DNA of 56,349 bases from Candidatus Natronoplasma sp. (GTDB lineage Archaea; Thermoplasmatota; Thermoplasmata; Halarchaeoplasmatales; Halarchaeoplasmataceae). The DNA lies in NCBI GenBank assembly GCA_048620775.1, contig JBMCEH010000001.1, forward strand, positions 1 through 56,349, written 5' to 3'. The notes under the pieces were generated by a model, which was given only the letters and a program-made list of their open reading frames with translations, was not told where the DNA came from and ran no database searches. The position numbers were made by a program, and so were the translations under genes. Positions 27,053-40,088 of the stretch are shown here, in pieces (positions within the stretch are counted from its first letter, which is position 1; each line of letters starts with the position of its first letter).

Positions 27053-30000
27053 TTAATCCTTCGAGTATTTTTCCCAGTCCCCAGATCTGTATTTTCCCCG
27101 GCTTTCATGCAGGGCTTCGAGCATCTCTGTTATATCGGAGACGTCTTTCAGACCGCCTGGCCAGTCTTTGATATCTTCACCATACCTTTCTTCAATATCA
27201 GAGACTAAATTTTTCATCCCTTCCAAAGCCCATTTTGGCTCATCGCCGGATATGAAAACAGCCAAGATTACACTATCACCTTTATGCACTAGTACTTTTT
27301 TGTCGCCATACTCCATCCTCTTTAAGACCTCGTCGTCCTCTTCGGCGAAGGCATCATCTACAAAATTTTGTACGGCTGTGAACATGCCTGCTAGTATATC
27401 TTCATCCCTTTCCTCATTTACCGTTCTAGCGATGTGTTTGATCAACCCACCGGAATCATGGATGAGGAATATGTCTTCGATGGTATATTCTCCTCTTTTC
27501 ACATAAAAAGCTACTCCTATCAATCCGAGGGATGTCAATCCAAATAAAAGTACTATATTGTTTGAATACCAAGGACCAGTTTTCGGTTGCTCGACAATTA
27601 CTTCGATGCTGTCCGTAGTTGTATCCAAGCCATCACTCACCTCTACCGTCACATTGTAATCTCCGGACTCATCATACCCAAAAAATAGTTTTTGTCCGTA
27701 GACCTCTACGTTAGGACTTTGAACTATGATTTCTAACTCATTTTTATTATTATCTACGTCGGATATGTAATCCCCCATATCCAAGATCCAATTTTCACCC
27801 ACCTCGCCTTCCTGTTTTGGGATATCAGATACCACGGGAGGATCATTGACAGGCGTTACTGTGACGTTCAGTGAATCTTCCATCAGCGCTCCTGCGCTGT
27901 TATTAGCCCGTAAAGTTATCAATTCTTGACCATACCAGTTATCTGGAGCGGAAAAATCAACAGAGCTGTTTTCGTGTATCTCGACGTCGATATACTCGTT
28001 TCCCGAGGAGTAGTATATGGTGTCGTTTTGTCTGTCGATAAAATGATTATCAAGGTGAAAAGCGTTGGTCAATTGATCGTCCTCTTTGAAAGCCACATCA
28101 TGAAGAGGTATGACTAGTTCAGGAGGATATACGTCAGTTACATTGACAGTGGTGATCTCAGAGGTAGTTTCTAAACCGTCAGAAACGAAGATCTCTATAG
28201 GTATGGTCTGGTTGTACATCTCCTCTGGAAACACCATAATCAATTCGGTGCCATCAACAGAAACATATTCAGAATCAGTGGATATCGAGAGGTCGTGGGT
28301 CTCGTTATCTCGGTCAGAGATATAGTACTCCAAATCGAATTCGTAGGACTCTTCATAATGGACCACGAACTCGGGAAGTTCTTTGATCTCAGGGGGATAA
28401 TTGATAGGGATCACAGTAACTTCTATCGTTTGTTCTATCAACGCACCTTCTGAATCCTCTGCTCTGAAAGTCACCGTTTCCACACCGTGCCAATCGACGT
28501 CTGCTTCCACATCCACTGTATTGTTCGCATGGAGGGTGATACTCAGGTAAGTGTAACCATAACTCATGTAAAGCGGTTCGTCTTCAGGATCGAAAAAATA
28601 GTCATCGAGGTCGAAAACGTTCTCTTTTAGTTCGCCCTGCTTTATCTCAAGGTCCGGCAGTTCCTCTTTTTCATCAGGCGGATCGTTCGAAGTCACTTCG
28701 ACATTTATAGCCGTGTGATCACTGTTTTCCCCATCAGAAACTGTGAGAACGACCAAGACCTCCTCTCCGAGCATATCCTCAGGATATTCATAGGTGACGT
28801 TCAACCCTTGAACCTCAGTATGATCAGGATCATCGGTCTCCAGCTCGAGTTCGTCCATCCGTTCCTCGTCATAGGTGATGTAGGGCAAGTAATCGAATTT
28901 GTAAGGCTTATCGTAGTGGACTTTCAAATCCGGAGGAGTATCGAACTCCGGAGATTGGTAATCAGCTGTTAAGTTTATCCACGCCTTTTGAGAGACCTCA
29001 TTATCGGCGCTGTTTACAAGATGATACATGACCCGCATAGAACCTTGTGCATTTTCCTCGGATAGAAGAGTCAAAATGTGATTTCCAGTATTGTTCTCCC
29101 CTAAAACCTCGATCACATCTGGGTCTTGACCGGTGAGATACCAACTCAAATCACTCAGGTCGTCGTACTCGTCATCTGCATGCTCGGTCAGATTTATCTC
29201 ATATATTCCAAAGTCTTTTTCAAGCTCGATATCAGGAATATCTCCTTTAATCGTTGGTTCACCATCATAGGCCACACTGAACTCAGACGAACTTTCGAAC
29301 TGATCGGTTATGGCGGTCACGTTGCATATCCCTTCGCTTAGACCGTGAAGGGTAGTTGTAGTTCCGTTATCCTCGTCTATCTCCCCTACATCTTCTGAAT
29401 CTAGGTCCCACTCGACCTCTAGATTACTCACGAAACCTGCCGTTTCATTATAGCCAGCAGCATACAGATCGATGGTTTCGTCGAGTCCCAAACTCTCCTT
29501 GTCGATGATATCTCCGGCTCCGTCAGGCTGGCTCCTGATGTTTATCCCATCGATCTCGGGTTCTTTGACAGAGAACTGGACTGAATCCATTTTCCCCTCG
29601 TAACTTGCATTTAGCCACACCTTCTCTGGTATCGTACCTACATCTATCCCATTCTCCACACCGCTATCGGTTTCCAAGAGTTGAGCACCGCCTCCGTCGA
29701 CATTCCACTCCGCCTCGACAAGATCTACGTACCCTGCAGTCTCATTGTATCCGGAGGCATTACCCCAGATCCTTTCTCCAACCGGGACATTCCCACCTTC
29801 CAAAGCATTACCACCAGGTGTTTCGGTGATATTTATGCTGTCTACCGTAGGTGAACGTACTTCGAACTTTACACTATCATGGAAAGTACTACCTGAGGAA
29901 TTCTCGTATGTAAGGTTGAACCAAACGTCACCGGCCTCATCTCCAACTTCTATAACGTTCGACTCGTTATAGCTGTCTTCCGAAAGAGAAGAACCTCCAC

Positions 30001-30880
30001 CCTCTGCAGACCAGTTCCCTGAGACGGTATAAAGGTATTCGCCATCTTCATTATAAACGGAACAATATCCTCTTACTTGATGACCGACTTCCACGGTTTC
30101 GTTATCCAACGGTTCACCACCGGGTGAGTCCGTGATCTTGACATGATCTACATCATCTGTTACAACGGTATATTTTACACTATCTTGATAATCATCACGT
30201 ATGGAGGTAACGTTAAACCAAACGTCGCCTGCAGTTTCTCCAACGTTTATAACGTTAAAAGAATTCTCTTCCGCATATAAAAGGCTCGCATCACCAGTAA
30301 CATTCCACTCACCAAATGGATTATCAAAAAAACCGTAGGTGTCATTATAAGTTGAAAGATATCCTCCTTCCTCATAATTTGGAGGGACCTCTTTATCGGA
30401 CAAGGCCGTACCGTTCACTTCATCGGTGATCTTAACATAATCGACCCCGGCTGTCGTAAAATTCCAGGGACCTCCTTCAGTTTGGTTCTCTACGACAACA
30501 TGCCAAGAATAATTTTTATTTGGATCTAAACTCTCCCATACCACTTCAGCCCTCTCTCCGCTGGTAACATTTTCTGCACTATCAATTTCACTCTCTGTCT
30601 CGTTATCATAAAATGAAACGTCCATTTCCTGCTCTTCAGTATGATTGACCAATACGGATAATTTCGGAGTTGAATTCAAGCCTTCTTGACCGTCAGAAGG
30701 TATTGGATCCTTGATATCGATCGATGATTCCAGTATATCCTCTTCAGACTTTTCTAAGGATCCTTCTTCAAATTCGATGTCTTCTTTCCGATCTTGAAGA
30801 TGACCATATCCTAAAGCATCGGCTACAGAAAAAAGTAGGAGGCAGATCAAACACATAGAGATGACATCGTATTTATTCAT
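27053..30880 (-). CDS. giant single-pass surface protein: signal peptide, Ig-like and cadherin-like repeat arrays, TM helix, cytoplasmic Roadblock/longin-like tail
   Basis: Signal peptide MNKYDVISMCLICLLLFSVADA. There are four ~95-aa repeats with VD.VKITD/.....GDVWFN.T, then alternating ~100-aa domains ending in ...VTV.P(V/I)N(D/Y)PP. The TM helix is IVLLFGLTSLGLIGVAFYV, followed by a 148-aa tail. I counted about three dozen N-x-S/T sequons by hand. Confidence 0.75.
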   Translation of the reverse strand: MNKYDVISMCLICLLLFSVADALGYGHLQDRKEDIEFEEGSLEKSEEDILESSIDIKDPIPSDGQEGLNSTPKLSVLVNHTEEQEMDVSFYDNETESEIDSAENVTSGERAEVVWESLDPNKNYSWHVVVENQTEGGPWNFTTAGVDYVKITDEVNGTALSDKEVPPNYEEGGYLSTYNDTYGFFDNPFGEWNVTGDASLLYAEENSFNVINVGETAGDVWFNVTSIRDDYQDSVKYTVVTDDVDHVKITDSPGGEPLDNETVEVGHQVRGYCSVYNEDGEYLYTVSGNWSAEGGGSSLSEDSYNESNVIEVGDEAGDVWFNLTYENSSGSTFHDSVKFEVRSPTVDSINITETPGGNALEGGNVPVGERIWGNASGYNETAGYVDLVEAEWNVDGGGAQLLETDSGVENGIDVGTIPEKVWLNASYEGKMDSVQFSVKEPEIDGINIRSQPDGAGDIIDKESLGLDETIDLYAAGYNETAGFVSNLEVEWDLDSEDVGEIDEDNGTTTTLHGLSEGICNVTAITDQFESSSEFSVAYDGEPTIKGDIPDIELEKDFGIYEINLTEHADDEYDDLSDLSWYLTGQDPDVIEVLGENNTGNHILTLLSEENAQGSMRVMYHLVNSADNEVSQKAWINLTADYQSPEFDTPPDLKVHYDKPYKFDYLPYITYDEERMDELELETDDPDHTEVQGLNVTYEYPEDMLGEEVLVVLTVSDGENSDHTAINVEVTSNDPPDEKEELPDLEIKQGELKENVFDLDDYFFDPEDEPLYMSYGYTYLSITLHANNTVDVEADVDWHGVETVTFRAEDSEGALIEQTIEVTVIPINYPPEIKELPEFVVHYEESYEFDLEYYISDRDNETHDLSISTDSEYVSVDGTELIMVFPEEMYNQTIPIEIFVSDGLETTSEITTVNVTDVYPPELVIPLHDVAFKEDDQLTNAFHLDNHFIDRQNDTIYYSSGNEYIDVEIHENSSVDFSAPDNWYGQELITLRANNSAGALMEDSLNVTVTPVNDPPVVSDIPKQEGEVGENWILDMGDYISDVDNNKNELEIIVQSPNVEVYGQKLFFGYDESGDYNVTVEVSDGLDTTTDSIEVIVEQPKTGPWYSNNIVLLFGLTSLGLIGVAFYVKRGEYTIEDIFLIHDSGGLIKHIARTVNEERDEDILAGMFTAVQNFVDDAFAEEDDEVLKRMEYGDKKVLVHKGDSVILAVFISGDEPKWALEGMKNLVSDIEERYGEDIKDWPGGLKDVSDITEMLEALHESRGKYRSGDWEKYSKD

Positions 30881-31050
30881 ACAAGTGAACCCCTGCTTTA
30901 TGTGATGTAAAATAAAACTTGTAGAGAGATATACTTAACCCTTTTGTCGATTTAGTGATTTTGTTGTGATGATATACGCCCATATCTTGTTCTCCTTAGA
31001 TTTCGTGAGAGAGAGTATCCTAGGTCAGCCCACTCATCACCAGAAGAGCT

Positions 31051-33345
31051 TTATCCGATTTCAACGGTTTCTTCTAAAATTGTAACACTACCATATTCTA
31101 GTGTAACTGTAAGTGTGATATCGTAAACACCAGGTGACGAATATTCATGAGAGGTATTTCTACTCTCACACGTATTTCCGTCTCCGAAGTCCCACTCATA
31201 AGATAAGATATCGTCCTCATCAAAATTCCCAACTGCCGAAAAATGTACCGTTCTAGATTCGGAGACCATATCACCGATCTCCTCATTTATATCATATGAT
31301 AACTCATGTTCTTCTGAGTTATGTTTAAAATTGTTGAAGAGAGTACTATAATTATCTCCACAAGTGAAATTTACCCATACTGGATTAGCTCCTCTCCCCT
31401 CAGACTCATAGTACAGGTCAAGGGTGTAGTTCCCCGTCATCCTGTATTTCATCTCTACCGTTTCGACCTGGGGTTTACCCGGCTCTCTTACCAGTTCGAT
31501 ACTTTCGATTACTTCACCGTCCTCCTGGAGCACAGCCGTTATGCTGTTACCTTTTCTCCCGGCTATCCTAACTGACATCTCCACCTCTCTCCATTTATCT
31601 ATCTCAAGGTCGATATCTGGAGTTTCTACTGTGACAGTAACAATAGGAGAAGTCACTTCTTGGTAGGTCGCTTTCACGTCGTATTCTCCTGTCGCAGTCT
31701 CCTCAAACAGGCCATCTTCTGTCGTATTCTCCCACATGAAGTTCGTATCTTCATCTTCAATAAGATTATCGTATTGATCGTAAGCTTCCGCGGAGAAGTC
31801 TATCGTTTCGCCTGCCGTGATCGTCTGGTCTGTTACTGGATCTATATCAACGTAATCAACTTCAGCTGGTTCCACATCGAATTCGTTGTTTGTACCCTCT
31901 ACAGTTTCATCGTCTTGATCCGTGGCCGTGATCGTGATATCTTCATCGGCCTCAGTGATGGTCACGGTGCCCGACCATTCCCCTTCTGTGAAAGTAGCCT
32001 CAACTGGATCTATAGTTCCCGTGGTATCTGTTAGATCGACAGTTCCTTCATATCCTGTAGCTACGTTACCATCGTCATCATAAGCCGTTATAGTTATGTC
32101 AAATGATTCACCGGCCGTTTGAGTTACTATATCATCAAACCTGAATTCGACCGCCTCTCCAGGCCCGCCGAATGAATACATCTTTCCGTTCACTGAACCT
32201 ACGTAAATTTTTCCGTCCTCGCCTATTGCCGGAGATGAATAAACATCATCGCCTGCTTCATAGGTCCATACCTTTTCACCATCAGTATTCAAAGCGTAGA
32301 GATTTCCATCATCAGATCCAACATATAGATATCCATCAGCGCTCACCGCAGGTGACGATCTTACTCTATCACCGGTTTCAAAAGTCCATTCTTCTGTTCC
32401 TTCTTTCACGCCGTAAACGTTACCGTTCCTAGCACCAAAATAAATCGTGCCATCTTGATCGACTGCTGGTGAAGTGCGTATTTGTGCGCCACTATCATAA
32501 TTCCATTTCAAATTACCTTCTTTATCTAAAGCGTAAAGATAACCGTCATAAGAACCAAAATATATTCCATCCTCCCCGATAGATGGTGAGGAATAGATAT
32601 CATCTCCGGTAGCATAATTCCACAGCTCAGTACCATCTGTTTTGTCTATGGCATAAAGGTTATTATCTCCTGAGCCCACGTAAACCACACCTTCTTCGGA
32701 TATCGAAGGCGACGACCATAACCAAGAATCAGAGCTAAATTCCCAGTTCAAATTCCCGTCTTTATCGATAGAATAAAGGTTACCATCATAGGACCCAACG
32801 TACACATTACCATCTTCATCCAAAGTAGGGGAAGAAAAAACTGCACCATCTGTCTCATATCTCCATCTTAAAGACCCATCCGGATTGAGTGCATAAATAT
32901 GTTCATCGCCAGATCCAAAATAGATTATCTCTTCTTCCGAAACAGCCGGCGAAGATATGATCATTTCATCCGTATTAAAAGTCCACTGCTCCTCGCCATC
33001 CTCTACATCGACCGCGTATAGATTGCTGTCTATAGAACCAAAATACATCACGCCTTCAGAACCTATAGCAGGGGATGACCTTACCGCTGATCCAGCATCG
33101 TGAGTCCAGTCAAGAGAGCTGTCTATGTGACCAGTATCGTATGGACTCAGCCGAGTATTCCGTTCATCTCTACCAAAGGATGGCCACGGTCCTTCAGATA
33201 GACTCTTTATTTCATCGTCTACTTCATCATCAACCTCATCTTCCTGGACCCCCGCAGGAGAAATATAAGCTGAGCTAACTGATAACCCTAACAATATTGT
33301 TCCCGAGATCAGGACCGCGATATATTTTCCGCTTTTTTTATTCAT
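31051..33345 (-). CDS. secreted PQQ-like beta-propeller protein with Ig-like domains and a C-terminal PKD domain
   Basis: Signal/anchor YIAVLISGTILLGLSVSSA. Eight repeats of the (L/I)YA(L/V/I)..DG...W.. type, two Ig-like modules (ITITAYDDDGN..., DFSAEAYDQYDN...), and PKD signature YEWDFGDGN. The start is placed at MNKKSGKY (33345). Confidence 0.75.
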   Translation of the reverse strand: MNKKSGKYIAVLISGTILLGLSVSSAYISPAGVQEDEVDDEVDDEIKSLSEGPWPSFGRDERNTRLSPYDTGHIDSSLDWTHDAGSAVRSSPAIGSEGVMYFGSIDSNLYAVDVEDGEEQWTFNTDEMIISSPAVSEEEIIYFGSGDEHIYALNPDGSLRWRYETDGAVFSSPTLDEDGNVYVGSYDGNLYSIDKDGNLNWEFSSDSWLWSSPSISEEGVVYVGSGDNNLYAIDKTDGTELWNYATGDDIYSSPSIGEDGIYFGSYDGYLYALDKEGNLKWNYDSGAQIRTSPAVDQDGTIYFGARNGNVYGVKEGTEEWTFETGDRVRSSPAVSADGYLYVGSDDGNLYALNTDGEKVWTYEAGDDVYSSPAIGEDGKIYVGSVNGKMYSFGGPGEAVEFRFDDIVTQTAGESFDITITAYDDDGNVATGYEGTVDLTDTTGTIDPVEATFTEGEWSGTVTITEADEDITITATDQDDETVEGTNNEFDVEPAEVDYVDIDPVTDQTITAGETIDFSAEAYDQYDNLIEDEDTNFMWENTTEDGLFEETATGEYDVKATYQEVTSPIVTVTVETPDIDLEIDKWREVEMSVRIAGRKGNSITAVLQEDGEVIESIELVREPGKPQVETVEMKYRMTGNYTLDLYYESEGRGANPVWVNFTCGDNYSTLFNNFKHNSEEHELSYDINEEIGDMVSESRTVHFSAVGNFDEDDILSYEWDFGDGNTCESRNTSHEYSSPGVYDITLTVTLEYGSVTILEETVEIG

Positions 33346-33362
33346 GCCCTTCTCTTGCTTAG

Positions 33363-33372
33363 TAATATATAT
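33363..33372 (-). promoter_or_regulatory. possible TATA box for the PQQ-propeller gene
   Basis: The minus strand reads ATATATATTA, about 23 nt upstream of the ATG at 33345. Confidence 0.3.
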
Positions 33373-33507
33373 GAGAGTATTAGTCATAAATAACTTTTGC
33401 CCGCCTATCAAGAAAATAACTTTTTTGCCCTTATATTCATATTTATCCCTATCTTTAATTCGCTACATTTCCACTCCTTATCCTCTCATTAAGAAATCAA
33501 ACATACC

Positions 33508-33516
33508 TTTTTATAT
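33508..33516 (+). promoter_or_regulatory. possible TATA box for the GTPase/V4R-DUF835 pair
   Basis: TTTTTATAT is centred about 26 nt upstream of the ATG at 33538. Confidence 0.35.
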
Positions 33517-33537
33517 CGTTTCTATTGTTGTTATACC

Positions 33538-34167
33538 ATGGCTCTGAGATCGATGAAGATCTTACTTCTGGGAGACGGAGCTGTTGGGAAGACCTCCCTG
33601 GTAAGGAGATTCGTAGAACAAAAATTCGACGACCGATATATAGCAACGATAGGGGTCAATGTCAAAAAGAAAAGACTGCCCGAGCTAGGTATCAAGATGA
33701 TGCTCTGGGATATCTACGGGCAGAAGATGAACAAGAACCTTCACGCATCCCATTATTCGGGGGCGGATGGAGCTATAATAGTATACGATCTCACACGCTA
33801 CGATACTTTTTTGAGCCTGAATGGCTGGATAGACGAGGTGTTCTCAGTCACAGGTAAGATCCCTTTAGTTATTTTAGGAAATAAATTAGATCTCATCGAG
33901 AAGTATGAAAGTAGCAGATACGATGATTTTGACTCGTTCATAAAAAGAGAACAAAGTCATATTGTCGATTTTTATAAGAAAGTTTATGAAGAAGTACCCG
34001 ATTTTTCCATGGTATCTCCAGATGAACAATCTAGATGGGCTGAAGACAAAAGAGCTGAGATAGAATCCGAGTTCTCATGTTACTTAACTAGTGCAAAAAC
34101 TGGAGAGAATGTGGAAGAAGCTTTCCGTAAAATAGGAGAAATATTATTAGAGGAGGAGATAAAATGA
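33538..34167 (+). CDS. Ras/Rab-like small GTPase
   Basis: G1 GDGAVGKT, switch-I Thr in YIATIGV, G3 WDIYGQ, G4 GNKLDL, G5 TSAKTG. There is no C-terminal Cys. Confidence 0.85.
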   Translation: MALRSMKILLLGDGAVGKTSLVRRFVEQKFDDRYIATIGVNVKKKRLPELGIKMMLWDIYGQKMNKNLHASHYSGADGAIIVYDLTRYDTFLSLNGWIDEVFSVTGKIPLVILGNKLDLIEKYESSRYDDFDSFIKREQSHIVDFYKKVYEEVPDFSMVSPDEQSRWAEDKRAEIESEFSCYLTSAKTGENVEEAFRKIGEILLEEEIK

Positions 34168-35072
34168 CCGACCTTGTGTCTATGCCTATAAAAATCATAC
34201 CACACTTGAGGACCACTATCGAGCAGATGGGGGGTAAAAACGAAGGAAATTTCGCTATATACCATCTAGGGTTTGAATGGGGTAAAGAAACAGTAGAGAT
34301 AAGTGGTGAAAAGAGCGACCTCGACGAATTGAAAACTAAAACTGTTTTGACTGCTATCCATTCTGGGATAACGAACTTCGAAGTGGAGATCAATGAATCC
34401 ATCAAGATAAAACCATATGAAACCAATATAGATGATGATTACTTTTTGGCGGGTTACGCAGCAGGTGTGGTATCGGAGCTCATGGGAGAATATCATATCG
34501 CCAGGATCAAAGATGGACAATACGAGGTGGTCAAGTCTGAAAATAAGATAGACGGTGAAATGTTTAGAGTGAGAGGAGAAAGGGAAAAAGTTGAATTAGA
34601 AAACCTAGAAAGCGGAGGATCATACCTTATAGCTGAGGAGGCGAAAGAAGCCCAGAGAAGCTTCGAAACATTTGTGAACGCTTTTAAAGAAGGTATGCCC
34701 GGATTGTGTTTTACAAGAAAGTTCCCCTCAAAATTAAAAGAAAAGTATCCTGATATCAACTGCCCGATATTCTGGCTCAGTATAGTGGATTCAACGGAGG
34801 ACGTAAAAACGATCAAACCTGAAAATTTAGATAATGAGATGATCAAAATCCTAAAAGCTTTTTTGAAGATGAATCAGGGTATAGTCATAATACACGGTAT
34901 AGAATTCCTGATTTCCTACATGGAATTTGATGATCTCTTAAATACACTTCAAAAGACGCGGGAACTGGTCTCAGAGGAAGGTGGCATCTTACTTTTACCT
35001 GCCAATACAGAATCGCTCAATGAAGACGATTTCAACACATTGAAAACCGAGTTTAAAATGTTCGTTCTATGA
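34164..35072 (+). CDS. V4R-like N-terminal domain fused to a DUF835-like C-terminal domain
   Basis: N-terminus: YHLGFEWGKE...FLAGYAAGVVSELMG, which is V4R-like. C-terminus: GMPGLCFTRKFPSKLKEKY...PIFWLS...IKPENL...VIIHGIEFLISYMEFDDLLNTLQ...LLLPANTESLNEDDFNTLKTEF, the DUF835 layout. ATGA overlap with the GTPase stop. Confidence 0.6.
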   Translation: MTDLVSMPIKIIPHLRTTIEQMGGKNEGNFAIYHLGFEWGKETVEISGEKSDLDELKTKTVLTAIHSGITNFEVEINESIKIKPYETNIDDDYFLAGYAAGVVSELMGEYHIARIKDGQYEVVKSENKIDGEMFRVRGEREKVELENLESGGSYLIAEEAKEAQRSFETFVNAFKEGMPGLCFTRKFPSKLKEKYPDINCPIFWLSIVDSTEDVKTIKPENLDNEMIKILKAFLKMNQGIVIIHGIEFLISYMEFDDLLNTLQKTRELVSEEGGILLLPANTESLNEDDFNTLKTEFKMFVL

Positions 35073-35123: not shown

Positions 35124-35993
35124 TTAAGCCTTCTCTCTCAATATATCTCCGATCTCGGTAGGCATCTTCGCAACAGAAACACCTGCATCTTCAAGCGCAT
35201 CTATCTTTGATTCCGCAGTTCCAGTTCCACCCTCAGAGACTATCGCACCTGCGTGTCCCATCCTCTTGCCTTCCGGTGCGGTTCTTCCCGCAATGTAAGC
35301 GACTACAGGCTTAGCGTATCCTTTTTTTATGTATTTGGCGGCATTTTCCTCAGCACTACCTCCGATCTCACCTATCATGATGACGGCATCAGTCTCAGGA
35401 TCTTCTTCATAAAGTTCGAGTGCATCTATAAAATCTAAGCCGACTATAGGATCGCCTCCCAAACCGAAGGCTGTAGATTGACCATATCCCTTTTCCGTGA
35501 TAGTGTTAACGATCTCATAGGTCAAAGTACCGCTCCTTGAAACCAGCCCTATGTTACCTTCTTCAAATATATGATTAGGCATTATGCCCACTTTGCTCTT
35601 TCCGGGTGAGATTATTCCCGGCGTATTAGGACCTATCACAGTGGTGTCATTCATCTCCGCAAGACGCATTATCTTCGCTGAATCTTGGACTGGTATATTT
35701 TCAGTTATTATCACAACGGGATCCATCCCGGCCTCAACCGCTTCGAAAGCCGCATCTTTAGCAAAGGGCGCCGGTACAAATATGATCGATGCATTTCCGC
35801 CTACTTCTTCTTTAGCGCTTTCAACAGTATTGAAAACTGGAATTCCTTTTACCTCTTTTCCGCCCTTTCCAGGAGTCACGCCAGCGACTATGTTCGTTCC
35901 GTATTCTTTCATATATTCAGTGTGAAAGATCCCCTGCTGACCGGTGATACCCTGAACGATCACTTCCGTATCTTCATCTACTAATATTCCCAT
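35124..35993 (-). CDS. sucD: succinyl-CoA synthetase (ADP-forming), alpha subunit
   Basis: VQGITGQQG, GVTPGKGG, SRSGTLTYE and phospho-His loop MGHAGAIV. Confidence 0.85.
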   Translation of the reverse strand: MGILVDEDTEVIVQGITGQQGIFHTEYMKEYGTNIVAGVTPGKGGKEVKGIPVFNTVESAKEEVGGNASIIFVPAPFAKDAAFEAVEAGMDPVVIITENIPVQDSAKIMRLAEMNDTTVIGPNTPGIISPGKSKVGIMPNHIFEEGNIGLVSRSGTLTYEIVNTITEKGYGQSTAFGLGGDPIVGLDFIDALELYEEDPETDAVIMIGEIGGSAEENAAKYIKKGYAKPVVAYIAGRTAPEGKRMGHAGAIVSEGGTGTAESKIDALEDAGVSVAKMPTEIGDILREKA

Positions 35994-38153: not shown

Positions 38154-40088
38154 TTGGCAAAAGATTCCAAAGAACGCTGTCCAATCTGTGATTCTGGTCT
38201 TCTCGAAGAGGTTGAGGAATGTCCTAATTGTGGAGCTGTATTGAAACTGTTCGATATCGATGTGGACGTAGAAAACGGCATCTCAAAAGAGGCATTCGAA
38301 AAAGTCAAGAATTTGATCCTAGAAGAAGGGGAGGATGAAGAACTACTTGAAAAAATCGGAGAGATGGAGTTCTCTGCTATAGTGAATGAAGATGATGAAA
38401 CAATTTCGACCGAGGAAACAGAAGATTTTGAAGAAATCGTGACTTTCGCCTGTCCCATCTGCGACAGTGAAGTAGGTGAAAATGACTCTCAATGTCCTAA
38501 CTGTGGAGCTATATTTGAAGTAGAAAGTGATGAAGAAGAGGAGCCCCTAGTGGATTTTCAAGATGAGATAGACCTTTATCAAAAGAAAATAAAGCAATTC
38601 GAACGTTCGGGATTGGGGATTAAATACCTGAAAAAAGAAGTGAGCAAATTAGAGGAGGCTCAGAACAAAGGCGATGAAAAGAGGGGTGAAATACTTTTGG
38701 AGGAAATACAAGATAAAATAGAGCACGTAGAAAACATCATGAGGATCACAACTAAATGTGAAAATTTTTTAAGTGTTCTCTCTGAAAAATTAGATGTTTC
38801 AGATTTGGAAAAAAAGGTGGATAAAATATATGAGGGCTGTGACATCGGTGAATATCAGGTAGCCTCCAAAAGGGGCGATAAGATACAAAAGGAAATAGTA
38901 GAGAAGCTAAATGGGCTAGAAGAGAAAAAATGGTTGAGAGACCTGATCGAAGAAAAGAGCGAAGAGGCAAGGGAATTGATATCTGAGATAAAATCCGACG
39001 TTGATATAGACCGAGTTGAAGAGAAAATCGGTGAGGCTCTATCAGCCAAAAACGATGGAGACCTAGAAGACGGATTACATAACGTCACGGAGGCATTAAA
39101 CTCCGCTTCGAACATCTTAGAGATATCGGAGAATATTGAAGAAGCAAACAAATATTTGGAAGATATAAAACAAAAAGGGATAGATGCTTCAGAATATGAA
39201 GAAGAAATAGATAACACTATAAGAGATATAGAAACGGGTGAAGAATTAGCTGCCTTTGAAATCATTGAAAGAACGATAGAAGATATGCAGAACAGTTTGG
39301 AAAAATACGAGGAGGAAAGAGAAAAACAAGAACTTGAAGAACTCAGTGAAAAAATAGAAGAAGAGATATCTCAGATGGAGGCCCTTTTGGAACAAGCTAA
39401 AAAGTTCGATATTGGGGTGATCGAAGGAGAAGAAAAGATAGACGAAGCTTTAACTCACGCTGAAGAGGATGAATATGAGGAAGGTCTTACTAAATTAGAA
39501 GAAGTTGATGAAACGTATCGAGGAAAAGTGGAAGATGAGATAGACCGAAAGATCGATTCGATGAAGGAAGGTATGAACGAAAACGTATCCGAAGAAGCGT
39601 CACCTTTTGAAAAGATCGAAGAACTAAAAGATAAAGGTGATTATGAAAAAATTTTAGAGCTTCTTGAAGATATGGAGAAAGAGATGGAGAGCCAAAAAGA
39701 AATCAAAGATGGCCTGACCGAATTTGTTTCGGAGATCGAAAGGATCATTGGTTACAGTGAAAATCTAGATTTTGATATGAAAGATGTTAGGGACCTCCTA
39801 GAAGATACGGAGGAACAAATCGAAAAGGGAGACTGGTCTGAGGCCGAAGATCATCTGAAAAGTTGTCGGAAAAAAATAAGGAAAAAACTATTACATTACC
39901 TGAAAGGGGAATACAAAAGTGCTAAGAAAAAACTTAAAGGGATCGATAGAGAAGATATCGACGTTAAAAAACCGGTTGAACTTATAAAAAAGGCGAATCG
40001 AGCTAGAAAAGAAAATAGACTAAAGGAAAGCTTCGAGACTTTGAACGATTACAAAGAAGAGATGGACAAAATCGATGAAAAAATATGA
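38154..40088 (+). CDS. double zinc-ribbon protein with a ~520-aa acidic coiled-coil region
   Basis: TTG start at 38154, 7 nt after GAGGTG. Two copies of CPICDS-x(9-10)-CPNCGA(V/I) are followed by E/K/D-rich heptad-like sequence to the end. Confidence 0.6.
   Translation: MAKDSKERCPICDSGLLEEVEECPNCGAVLKLFDIDVDVENGISKEAFEKVKNLILEEGEDEELLEKIGEMEFSAIVNEDDETISTEETEDFEEIVTFACPICDSEVGENDSQCPNCGAIFEVESDEEEEPLVDFQDEIDLYQKKIKQFERSGLGIKYLKKEVSKLEEAQNKGDEKRGEILLEEIQDKIEHVENIMRITTKCENFLSVLSEKLDVSDLEKKVDKIYEGCDIGEYQVASKRGDKIQKEIVEKLNGLEEKKWLRDLIEEKSEEARELISEIKSDVDIDRVEEKIGEALSAKNDGDLEDGLHNVTEALNSASNILEISENIEEANKYLEDIKQKGIDASEYEEEIDNTIRDIETGEELAAFEIIERTIEDMQNSLEKYEEEREKQELEELSEKIEEEISQMEALLEQAKKFDIGVIEGEEKIDEALTHAEEDEYEEGLTKLEEVDETYRGKVEDEIDRKIDSMKEGMNENVSEEASPFEKIEELKDKGDYEKILELLEDMEKEMESQKEIKDGLTEFVSEIERIIGYSENLDFDMKDVRDLLEDTEEQIEKGDWSEAEDHLKSCRKKIRKKLLHYLKGEYKSAKKKLKGIDREDIDVKKPVELIKKANRARKENRLKESFETLNDYKEEMDKIDEKI

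Follow-up and report, generated by a model that had tools for sequence, protein, structure and literature searches.

Platforms built from Roadblock or longin domains are central to membrane identity in eukaryotes, as in the Ragulator–Rag, TRAPP and Mon1–Ccz1 systems, and in prokaryotes they are understood mainly through the soluble protein MglB. Here we describe a locus in a 56,349-nucleotide (nt) stretch of the archaeon Candidatus Natronoplasma sp. (assembly GCA_048620775.1, contig JBMCEH010000001.1, positions 1 to 56,349; hereafter the window), in which a giant surface protein with a cytoplasmic tail of this predicted fold class is encoded close to a Rab-like small GTPase and a DUF835 protein. 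Our observations concern the gene structure of the locus, the topology signals of its proteins, the predicted fold of the tail, the size of the tail family and its linkage to GTPase genes. The reading that we favor, with a probability of roughly 0.55, is that the locus encodes a membrane-tethered small-GTPase module in which the tail would be the docking platform for the Rab-like GTPase.

In the MglA–MglB system of Myxococcus and Thermus, as in the window, the gene of a Ras-superfamily GTPase lies beside a gene of the Roadblock/longin class, and MglB is found among the structural matches of the tail. However, MglB is a soluble, stand-alone Roadblock protein with an N-terminal helix, whereas the window tail is predicted to follow the longin order and is fused via a transmembrane (TM) helix to an ectodomain of 1100 amino acids (aa). 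The window GTPase also differs from MglA in being Rab-like, with a normal DxxGQ motif at G3. Ragulator (LAMTOR1-5) offers a closer parallel in one respect, since it is a membrane-anchored Roadblock platform that recruits the Rag GTPases; LAMTOR2/3 are also among the matches of the tail, and some relatives' loci contain two tandem GTPases. Its anchor is the lipidation of LAMTOR1, not a TM helix with an ectodomain, and the Rags have a C-terminal Roadblock domain of their own, which is missing from the GTPases described here, whose extensions, where present, look helical.

The TRAPP core (the longins TRAPPC1/C4 with Bet3-family, V4R-related subunits) and the Mon1–Ccz1 and Fuzzy–Inturned complexes resemble the locus in placing a longin-fold domain beside a Rab-like GTPase. 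The tail family shows weak but specific hidden Markov model (HMM) similarity to longin domain 1 of MON1/FUZ/HPS1, the structural matches of the tail include sedlin and TRAPP subunits, and the locus may encode a V4R-like domain of the Bet3 superfamily. These complexes are soluble, eukaryotic and composed of multiple subunits; in contrast, the window comes from a non-Asgard archaeon, where a role as guanine nucleotide exchange factor (GEF) is putative. In the signal recognition particle (SRP) receptor, the longin-like SRX domain of SR-alpha binds the Arf-like GTPase SR-beta at the membrane. There it is the GTPase that has the TM anchor; the longin-like domain belongs to the soluble partner, and the role is protein targeting.

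Among prokaryotic operons, the Streptomyces conservon consists of the membrane histidine kinase CvnA, the Roadblock protein CvnB, CvnC and the GTPase CvnD (Wuichet and Sogaard-Andersen, PMC4316618). It likewise joins a membrane sensor, a Roadblock-class protein and a Ras-like GTPase, but its sensor is a histidine kinase and its Roadblock protein is separate and soluble, whereas in the window the platform would be the surface protein's own tail and no kinase is present. None of the conservon and Rup neighborhoods described in that paper resembles the window arrangement. The same folds occur in Asgard archaea as Rab-like GTPases and as Roadblock, longin and TRAPPC3/V4R proteins (Tran et al. 2024, PMC10933270). 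Asgard GTPases generally lie outside operons with Roadblock, longin or TRAPPC3 genes, and their regulators cannot be matched by gene order (Tran et al., PMC10933270); linkage of the window type, in contrast, is operonic and conserved, involves a TM-tethered platform and belongs to Thermoplasmatota. Single divergent Rab-like genes have been noted in Thermoplasmatales and Aciduliprofundum, with no genomic context given (Surkont and Pereira-Leal, PMC4915359). The literature searched yielded no account of a longin/Roadblock-like tail that is tethered by a TM helix and linked to GTPases in Thermoplasmatota, and an earlier note on this DNA knew of no characterized receptor-tethered arrangement of this kind. 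Thus, the logic of a Roadblock/longin platform with a small GTPase is known, and the fusion through a TM helix to giant ectodomains, the tail family and the conserved operonic pairing outside Asgard archaea appear to be new.

Predicted fold of the cytoplasmic tail

Open reading frame (ORF) calling together with domain and hydrophobicity scans describes the giant protein (1275 aa; positions 27053-30880, minus strand) as a single-pass surface protein. Its TM helix, located by a Kyte–Doolittle scan, spans residues 1106-1128 (27497-27565, minus strand) and is followed by KRGE on the cytoplasmic side. The tail comprises residues 1128-1275 (27056-27499, minus strand), with the core of the longin/Roadblock-like domain at about 27104-27484.

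The window tail has no match in Pfam or NCBIfam at E ≤ 1 and no sequence match in the PDB. An AlphaFold2 model built on an alignment of five sequences has a predicted local distance difference test score (pLDDT) of 79 and a predicted template-modeling score (pTM) of 0.77. It shows the order β-β-α-β-β-β-α-α, with strands at tail residues 6-14, 19-24, 59-64, 67-73 and 77-84 and helices at 32-50, 89-111 and 121-132. The longin/Roadblock class is a three-layer α/β sandwich around a five-stranded antiparallel sheet, and β-β-α-β-β-β-α-α is the order of longin domains. Relative to Roadblock, longin lacks the N-terminal helix and has an additional C-terminal helix (PMC10933270). Because the model has no N-terminal helix and two C-terminal helices, its topology corresponds to the longin arrangement, and the tail is thus predicted to be nearer to longin than to Roadblock/MglB.

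A Foldseek search of the PDB with this model gave 37 matches at E ≤ 1e-3, and the 50 matches listed (to E 1.5e-3) are all longin or Roadblock proteins. Longins come first: zeta-COP (5e-6), AP-2 sigma (template-modeling score 0.65), Sec22b (0.65/0.73), sedlin, Ykt6 and AP1/AP4 sigma. Roadblock proteins follow, namely LAMTOR2/3, Ego3, dynein LC7, an Asgard Roadblock protein and MglB (3t1s and 1j3w, with E 1.4e-3, just over 1e-3).

Profile comparisons of the relatives point weakly, though specifically, in the same direction. Under relaxed Pfam thresholds, Robl_LC7 matched five of 24 diverse members of the tail family (best E 0.0014) and Fuz_longin_1 also matched five (best E 0.0071); these are the sole families matched by more than one of the 24, and all matches are sub-threshold. 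Fuz_longin_1 is the first longin domain of MON1/FUZ/HPS1. The family consensus aligns over nearly the full length of both models, with E 0.023 and 14.9 bits for Robl_LC7 (cutoff 23) and E 0.014 and 16.1 bits for Fuz_longin_1 (cutoff 26.1). Neither the window tail nor its relatives nor the consensus reaches the cutoff for membership in a curated family, be it Robl_LC7 (PF03259) or the longin families. One member carries the JGI name 'predicted regulator of Ras-like GTPase activity (Roadblock/LC7/MglB family)'. The earlier note had read the tail as a Roadblock/LC7-longin domain, and the sequence that it quoted is present in the tail. Its fold class agrees with the AlphaFold2 and Foldseek results and with the recurrent sub-threshold matches of the relatives, but no curated HMM matches, and the model is of the longin rather than the Roadblock/MglB type. 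On these grounds we accept the tail as a hitherto unannotated domain of the longin/Roadblock fold class that lies outside any curated family.

The window tail carries the signature IEDIFLIH..G.LIKH...DEDILAGMFTAVQNFV...W.G. Its most conserved stretch, DEDILAGMFTAVQNFV, maps to a single long helix on one face of the sheet, and residues D32, W113 and G115 (tail numbering) are invariant in 24 diverse sequences. In solved complexes such as MglA–MglB and Ypt1–TRAPP, the GTPase sits on the dimer platform formed by Roadblock or longin domains, and the corresponding helix region is part of this platform. The same region mediates dimerization in Roadblock proteins (PMC10933270).

The tail family

A word-indexed search retrieved just four relatives of the tail (its profile version found short proteins only), and it was an exhaustive profile search that revealed the family. 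At 50% identity, 5,425 representatives have E ≤ 1e-3, and 3,653 of them have E ≤ 1e-10. The region is unannotated in all 5,425, and the family deserves a domain model of its own. Its signature is [IV]E[DE][IV]FL[IV]..G.LI.H.TR.L..D.DEDIL[AS]GM[LF]TAVQ.FVKDSF ... W.GD.

Most commonly, the domain stands at the extreme C-terminus of proteins of 500-2600 aa, directly after a hydrophobic helix. The ectodomains vary and include Big_9, cadherin-like, FG-GAP plus He_PIG, PKD, CARDB and PQQ-propeller types; P0085 (2049 aa), for example, has the tail domain after an integrin-like ectodomain of FG-GAP and He_PIG/cadherin-like repeats. The minimal form, of about 195 aa, consists of a TM helix and the domain alone. 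Rarer forms have two or three copies of the domain or belong to a cytosolic AAA_16+TPR protein. P0005, P0014, P0026 and similar proteins (1100-2400 aa) combine two or three internal copies with CARDB and a C-terminal DUF5915, and in P0142 (1725 aa) the domain is at the N-terminus of a cytosolic, STAND-type AAA_16 plus TPR protein. Split forms, in which an ectodomain gene is followed within 0-20 nt by a separate TM+tail gene, are seen at L004:33-1736 and L091:1454-5525; they suggest gene fission or fusion, or else frameshifts in the assembly.

Linkage of tail genes to GTPase genes

Genomes were scanned, one per GTDB species, with an alignment (A1) that skews the loci towards Thermoplasmatota members of the DEDILAGM type. 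Of 210 confirmed matches the best 80 were used, together with metagenome contigs; almost all of the 80 come from Thermoplasmata/Thermoplasmatota metagenome-assembled genomes. ORFs were called in all loci and then searched with the window proteins. The nearest relatives of the window locus are in Saliniplasma-like genomes from hypersaline and soda lakes.

In 60 loci, 1 kb or more of sequence is available upstream of the gene with the tail. A Ras-family GTPase gene lies within 4 kb of the tail gene in 49 of these 60 loci, and within 300 nt in 34. It is usually located directly upstream of the tail gene on the same strand, and sometimes two GTPase genes occur in tandem. All ten neighboring GTPases that were sampled score with Pfam Ras (1e-30 to 1e-38). 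The same loci provide an internal control: 62 GTPase genes fall in the 470 kb that lie no more than 4 kb from a tail gene and 2 in the 347 kb beyond, a 23-fold higher density near the tail genes. Upon clustering of the neighbors, the GTPase was the only family conserved across sub-lineages, and the remaining neighbors reflect local synteny.

The pairing takes several forms. On three metagenomic contigs (L002, L085 and L087) a stand-alone TM+tail gene is followed by the gene of a 270-aa GTPase, next to sucCD, and on the L086 contig three tail genes precede two GTPase genes. In L002 the TM+tail protein has 197 aa and its GTPase 271 aa. The giant gene together with the GTPase–DUF835 gene pair recurs in another 13 loci, with tail identities as low as about 56-59% and varying placement of the PQQ gene. 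The adjacency is thus not unique to the genome of the window, and tail–GTPase linkage is conserved across Thermoplasmatota.

The Rab-like GTPase

The GTPase gene (33538-34167, plus strand; 209 aa) was identified by Pfam Ras and by its G motifs. The match to Pfam Ras has an E of 5.6e-33 and 114.3 bits (cutoff 21.6), and motifs G1-G5 are complete (GDGAVGKT, T37, DIYGQ, NKLD and SAK), with the catalytic Gln in DIYGQ; the Ras/Rab-like identity proposed earlier for this protein is confirmed by both. The best sequence matches in the PDB are a Thorarchaeota Rab (1.6e-27), followed by Rab21/18/6/7. Its C-terminus (...EILLEEEIK) has no cysteine, so that the prenylation motif of eukaryotic Rabs is not found, and by its sequence the protein is Rab-like, not a bona fide Rab. 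In MglA-type GTPases the G3 motif is of the TxxGQ type and has no conserved Asp. The window GTPase, whose G3, DIYGQ, keeps this residue, is not of the MglA type.

A neighbor-joining tree divides the GTPases into three groups, clades A, B and C. Clade A, which includes the window gene, is always paired with a DUF835 gene, usually with a 4-nt overlap, and is the group nearest to the GTPase partner of the minimal TM+tail proteins. Clade-B GTPases have 270-298 aa; their G3 motif, DIMGE, does not contain the catalytic Gln, and they end in a helical extension of about 95 aa. Clade C comprises operonic GTPases of 180 aa from other Thermoplasmata. A Rag-like identity (GTPase plus Roadblock) was considered for the 270-aa GTPases and rejected: their C-terminal extension matches neither Pfam nor the tail HMM and reads as helical. 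Between G4 (NKLD) and G5 (SAK), clade-A GTPases contain an acidic stretch of about 40 additional aa, in the place occupied by the Rho insert (residues ~120-183 in the window protein); the 180-aa operonic GTPases do not have this stretch.

In Saliniplasma-like relatives the full locus is divergent, with the GTPase-A and DUF835 genes running in one direction and the GTPase-B, PQQ and giant genes, in this order, in the other. The clade-B gene is upstream of the PQQ and giant genes and co-oriented with them in L006:2302-3150, L010:1398-2210, L012:3203-4015, L014:3193-4005 and L027:3447-4337. By comparison, GTPase-B has been lost from the window and from L005, its closest relative, and the window thus shows a reduced version of the module. 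Since the co-oriented GTPase of the relatives belongs to another clade, which is missing here, the divergent GTPase of the window is not necessarily the only or primary partner of the tail. That the tail is paired with the divergent GTPase, as proposed in the earlier note, is therefore plausible but not exclusive.

The GTPase–DUF835 pairing recurs in another form in L090. At L090:4658-15092, integrase and Cdc6-like genes separate the pair from a large surface-protein gene. Nearby, a second Ras gene, encoding 270 aa, lies beside a DnaA-like AAA–DUF835 fusion, followed by a Robl_LC7 gene.

The DUF835 protein

The second gene of the plus-strand pair (34164-35072) encodes a protein of 302 aa with two domains, an N-domain (residues 1-125, ~34164-34538) and a C-domain (~34611-35069). 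Residues 165-297 match DUF835 (PF05763) with an E of 3.4e-23 and 82.4 bits (cutoff 33.1). The AlphaFold2 model, built with 24 orthologues, has a pLDDT of 86.7 and likewise shows two domains. For the C-domain, Foldseek retrieves KaiC, FlaH, PH0284 and RecA, and a reading of motifs found no Walker A sequence (GxxxxGK[ST]) in the protein. The C-domain is thus modeled as a KaiC/RecA-like fold without Walker A. This agrees with the published label of DUF835 as an inactivated KaiC (iKaiC); in Methanomicrobia and Thermoplasmata, DUF835 also serves as an output domain of response regulators (Galperin et al. 2018, PMC5847659).

The N-domain has the topology ααα-ββ-α-ββ in the model, which is compatible with a V4R/Bet3-type fold. 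V4R (PF02830) has no match in the window protein in Pfam. It matches one of 15 orthologues (E 0.0042), and the consensus reaches 12.3-13.1 bits (cutoff 31) over the motif FLAGYxAGVVSELLG alone; the C-terminal half of the consensus, scanned separately, did not confirm V4R either. No V4R structure was retrieved when a profile was run against the sequences of the PDB, V4R gained no support from a transitive search with the ORFs of all loci, and the motif region of the N-domain has no cysteines. In the Foldseek search with the full-length model, the list was filled by KaiC-type matches. The earlier description of a V4R-like plus DUF835-like protein therefore holds for the DUF835 half; the V4R label of the N-terminal half is unconfirmed and sub-threshold throughout.

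A possible membrane-tethered GTPase module

The tail may be read as a docking platform for the GTPase by analogy with all characterized members of its fold class that work with GTPases, namely MglB, LAMTOR/Ragulator, the TRAPP longins and Mon1–Ccz1. In such a module the tail, probably as a dimer, would bring the Rab-like GTPase to the membrane where the surface protein is located, and it could perhaps also control the nucleotide state of the GTPase, acting either as GEF or as GTPase-activating protein (GAP). In this way, events at the cell surface would be linked to a switch in the cytoplasm, or vice versa. The two-domain DUF835 protein, of the inactivated-KaiC type, would be the most likely effector or co-regulator of the clade-A GTPase. 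Physical binding, GEF or GAP activity, the direction of signaling and the biological output are suggested here by analogy. The transmembrane signaling module proposed in the earlier note is in part supported, by the predicted longin/Roadblock-type fold and by the conserved linkage to GTPases; the V4R partner is unconfirmed and the window GTPase is not an exclusive partner.

Several observations weigh against a docking platform. The fold of the tail rests on a model from five sequences, with pLDDT 62-67 in some segments, and the window tail scores with no curated HMM. Longin domains also have roles unrelated to GTPases, as in SNAREs and adaptor sigma subunits. Neither the window nor L005, each with a divergent gap of just 185-192 nt, has the co-oriented clade-B GTPase, and the GTPase that the window does have belongs to the clade paired with DUF835, which in L090 has no tail gene nearby. 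No GTPase gene is nearby in 11 of the 60 loci, and two further stand-alone or split tail forms also have none; such paralogous tail proteins may act in trans or otherwise. The missing clade-B gene, the pair in L090 and the 11 loci also favor a reading in which the tail, like the longins of SNAREs or adaptor sigma subunits, is a dimerization or anchoring module that makes no direct contact with the GTPase, the genes being co-regulated in an envelope process and the GTPase–DUF835 pair forming an independent two-gene switch. The top Foldseek matches, sigma-adaptin and zeta-COP longins, are themselves not GTPase binders and would suit it. We nevertheless regard it as unlikely, as the 34 loci with a GTPase gene within 300 nt span several GTPase clades, gene orders and tail architectures, and the linkage extends to minimal TM+tail proteins, which have no ectodomain to anchor. 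Moreover, the sub-threshold HMM matches are to Roadblock and to the Rab-binding MON1/FUZ longin, not to SNARE longins.

A more serious competitor, although less probable than the docking platform as outlined above, is control from the inside out, with identical parts and contacts but reversed causality. Here the GTPase switch and the DUF835 protein would act through the tail on the surface protein, on its clustering, polar localization, turnover or adhesiveness, and the ectodomain would not signal inward. This would be analogous to the action of MglA/MglB on motility and adhesion complexes, and the evidence from fold and linkage is common to both readings. The ectodomains of the family are adhesin-like arrays (Big_9, cadherin-like, FG-GAP, PKD and CARDB) with no recognizable small-ligand sensors, and several tail paralogues have no GTPase of their own, which would fit a single switch shared by many surface proteins. 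Sequence, however, does not tell direction, and the PQQ-propeller partner could bind a ligand. A conflict or defense system, with a surface receptor and a nucleoside triphosphatase switch sensing attack by phages or competitors, is very improbable. It could be suggested by the tail domain in the STAND-type protein P0142 and by the integrase beside the pair in L090. None of the four window proteins matches PADLOC (E ≤ 0.01), Pfam and NCBIfam reveal no effector nuclease, protease or toxin domain in them, and the housekeeping synteny (sucCD, aminotransferase) is stable, with vertical conservation across Thermoplasmatota.

If the tail is a docking platform, the operonic tail–GTPase pairs provide concrete cognate pairs for biochemistry. 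The module would suggest how archaea that are wall-less or have an S-layer could link adhesion or sensing at the surface to a switch inside the cell with no histidine kinases involved, and it adds a data point from outside the Asgard archaea on the origin of longin–Rab coupling. A bolder proposal, which we consider speculative and improbable, is that Thermoplasmatota carry a receptor-coupled, TRAPP- or Mon1–Ccz1-like module for Rab regulation at the plasma membrane. It would be widespread, encoded in operons and made up of a TM-tethered longin GEF or GAP platform and the Rab-like GTPase that it serves, joined in the Natronoplasma/Saliniplasma clade by a domain related to Bet3/V4R; such regulators of membrane trafficking are otherwise considered typical of eukaryotes or Asgard archaea. 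If it held, longin–Rab coupling would predate the Asgard–eukaryote lineage or have arisen independently of it, and a genetically paired, testable longin–GTPase system would be at hand.

The surface proteins

The N-terminus of the giant protein is hydrophobic at residues 4-28 (Kyte–Doolittle scan), and segment 1106-1128 is the sole further hydrophobic stretch besides this signal peptide, in line with the signal peptide, single TM helix and 148-aa tail described earlier. The ectodomain of about 1100 aa is extremely acidic (22% D+E) and contains all 36 N-x-S/T sequons of the protein, with none in the tail. An outside/inside topology fits this distribution, because all sequons precede the TM helix. 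These sequence features are those that one expects of a type-I surface glycoprotein in a halophilic archaeon.

The ectodomain matches Big_9 in Pfam (1.3e-8); Cadherin_4, Big_2 and PKD are all below threshold, and a tandem-95 repeat of NCBIfam reaches 5e-14, yet is under the cutoff of its model. The Ig/cadherin-like repeats of the earlier description are thus reasonable but loosely supported. The ectodomain is probably an adhesin or ligand-binding array.

The second minus-strand gene (31051-33345) encodes an exported protein with a PQQ-type beta-propeller, Ig-like and PKD domains, 764 aa long when read from its ATG; an alternative TTG start at 33411 would give 786 aa. Three Pfam families match above their cutoffs: Beta-prop_ACSF4 (3.5e-83, 280 bits), PQQ_2 (5e-42, 144 bits) and PKD_4 (4e-18, 65.6 bits). 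The single hydrophobic segment is N-terminal (residues 8-29), and in the window the protein has no TM+tail. Propeller, PKD domain and export, all of which had been noted before, are borne out by these matches and by the hydrophobic N-terminus.

Paralogues of this PQQ-propeller protein that have their own TM+tail (953-968 aa) are found at L020:3529-6387, L028:10541-13414, L032:7571-10456 and L033:584-3487. In these four loci the tail-bearing paralogue directly follows the giant tail-bearing gene, giving two tail proteins in tandem, for which a heterodimeric platform is possible. One sub-lineage has ten loci in which an exosortase/archaeosortase-like gene is convergent with the 3' end of the tail gene and touches it (L004:1768-2643, which matches Pfam Exosortase_EpsH, L036:7495-8364, L048:10419-11363, L059:10419-11345, L068:10417-11298 and five more).

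Locus organization and neighboring genes

ORF calling found all four genes where the earlier note had placed them. The PQQ/PKD gene is upstream of the giant gene in the same orientation. The division of the locus into two minus-strand genes of exported proteins and a divergent plus-strand pair, across an AT-rich gap of 192 nt (33346-33537), can be read directly from the sequence, as can the ATGA in which the stop codon of the GTPase gene and the start codon of the DUF835 gene overlap. This 4-nt overlap is conserved in orthologous loci, and the DUF835 gene is predicted to be translationally coupled to the GTPase gene through it.

Within the gap, TATA-like elements are located about 25-30 nt before the start codon of the minus-strand gene (catatatatta) and of the GTPase gene (tttttatatc), and these are candidate promoters. 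The gap was also scanned with a sigma-70 promoter model, which is uninformative for an archaeon.

Beside the module, the window contains just one of the succinyl-CoA ligase genes, sucD (35124-35993). sucCD also lies beside the minimal TM+tail and GTPase loci (L002:2766-4737, L085:3879-5849 and L087:3871-5844), and the shared adjacency may be a remnant of ancestral synteny. Further along, at 38154-40088, the window encodes an extremely acidic, coiled-coil-like protein of 644 aa with two CPxC...CPNCG zinc-ribbon motifs near its N-terminus.

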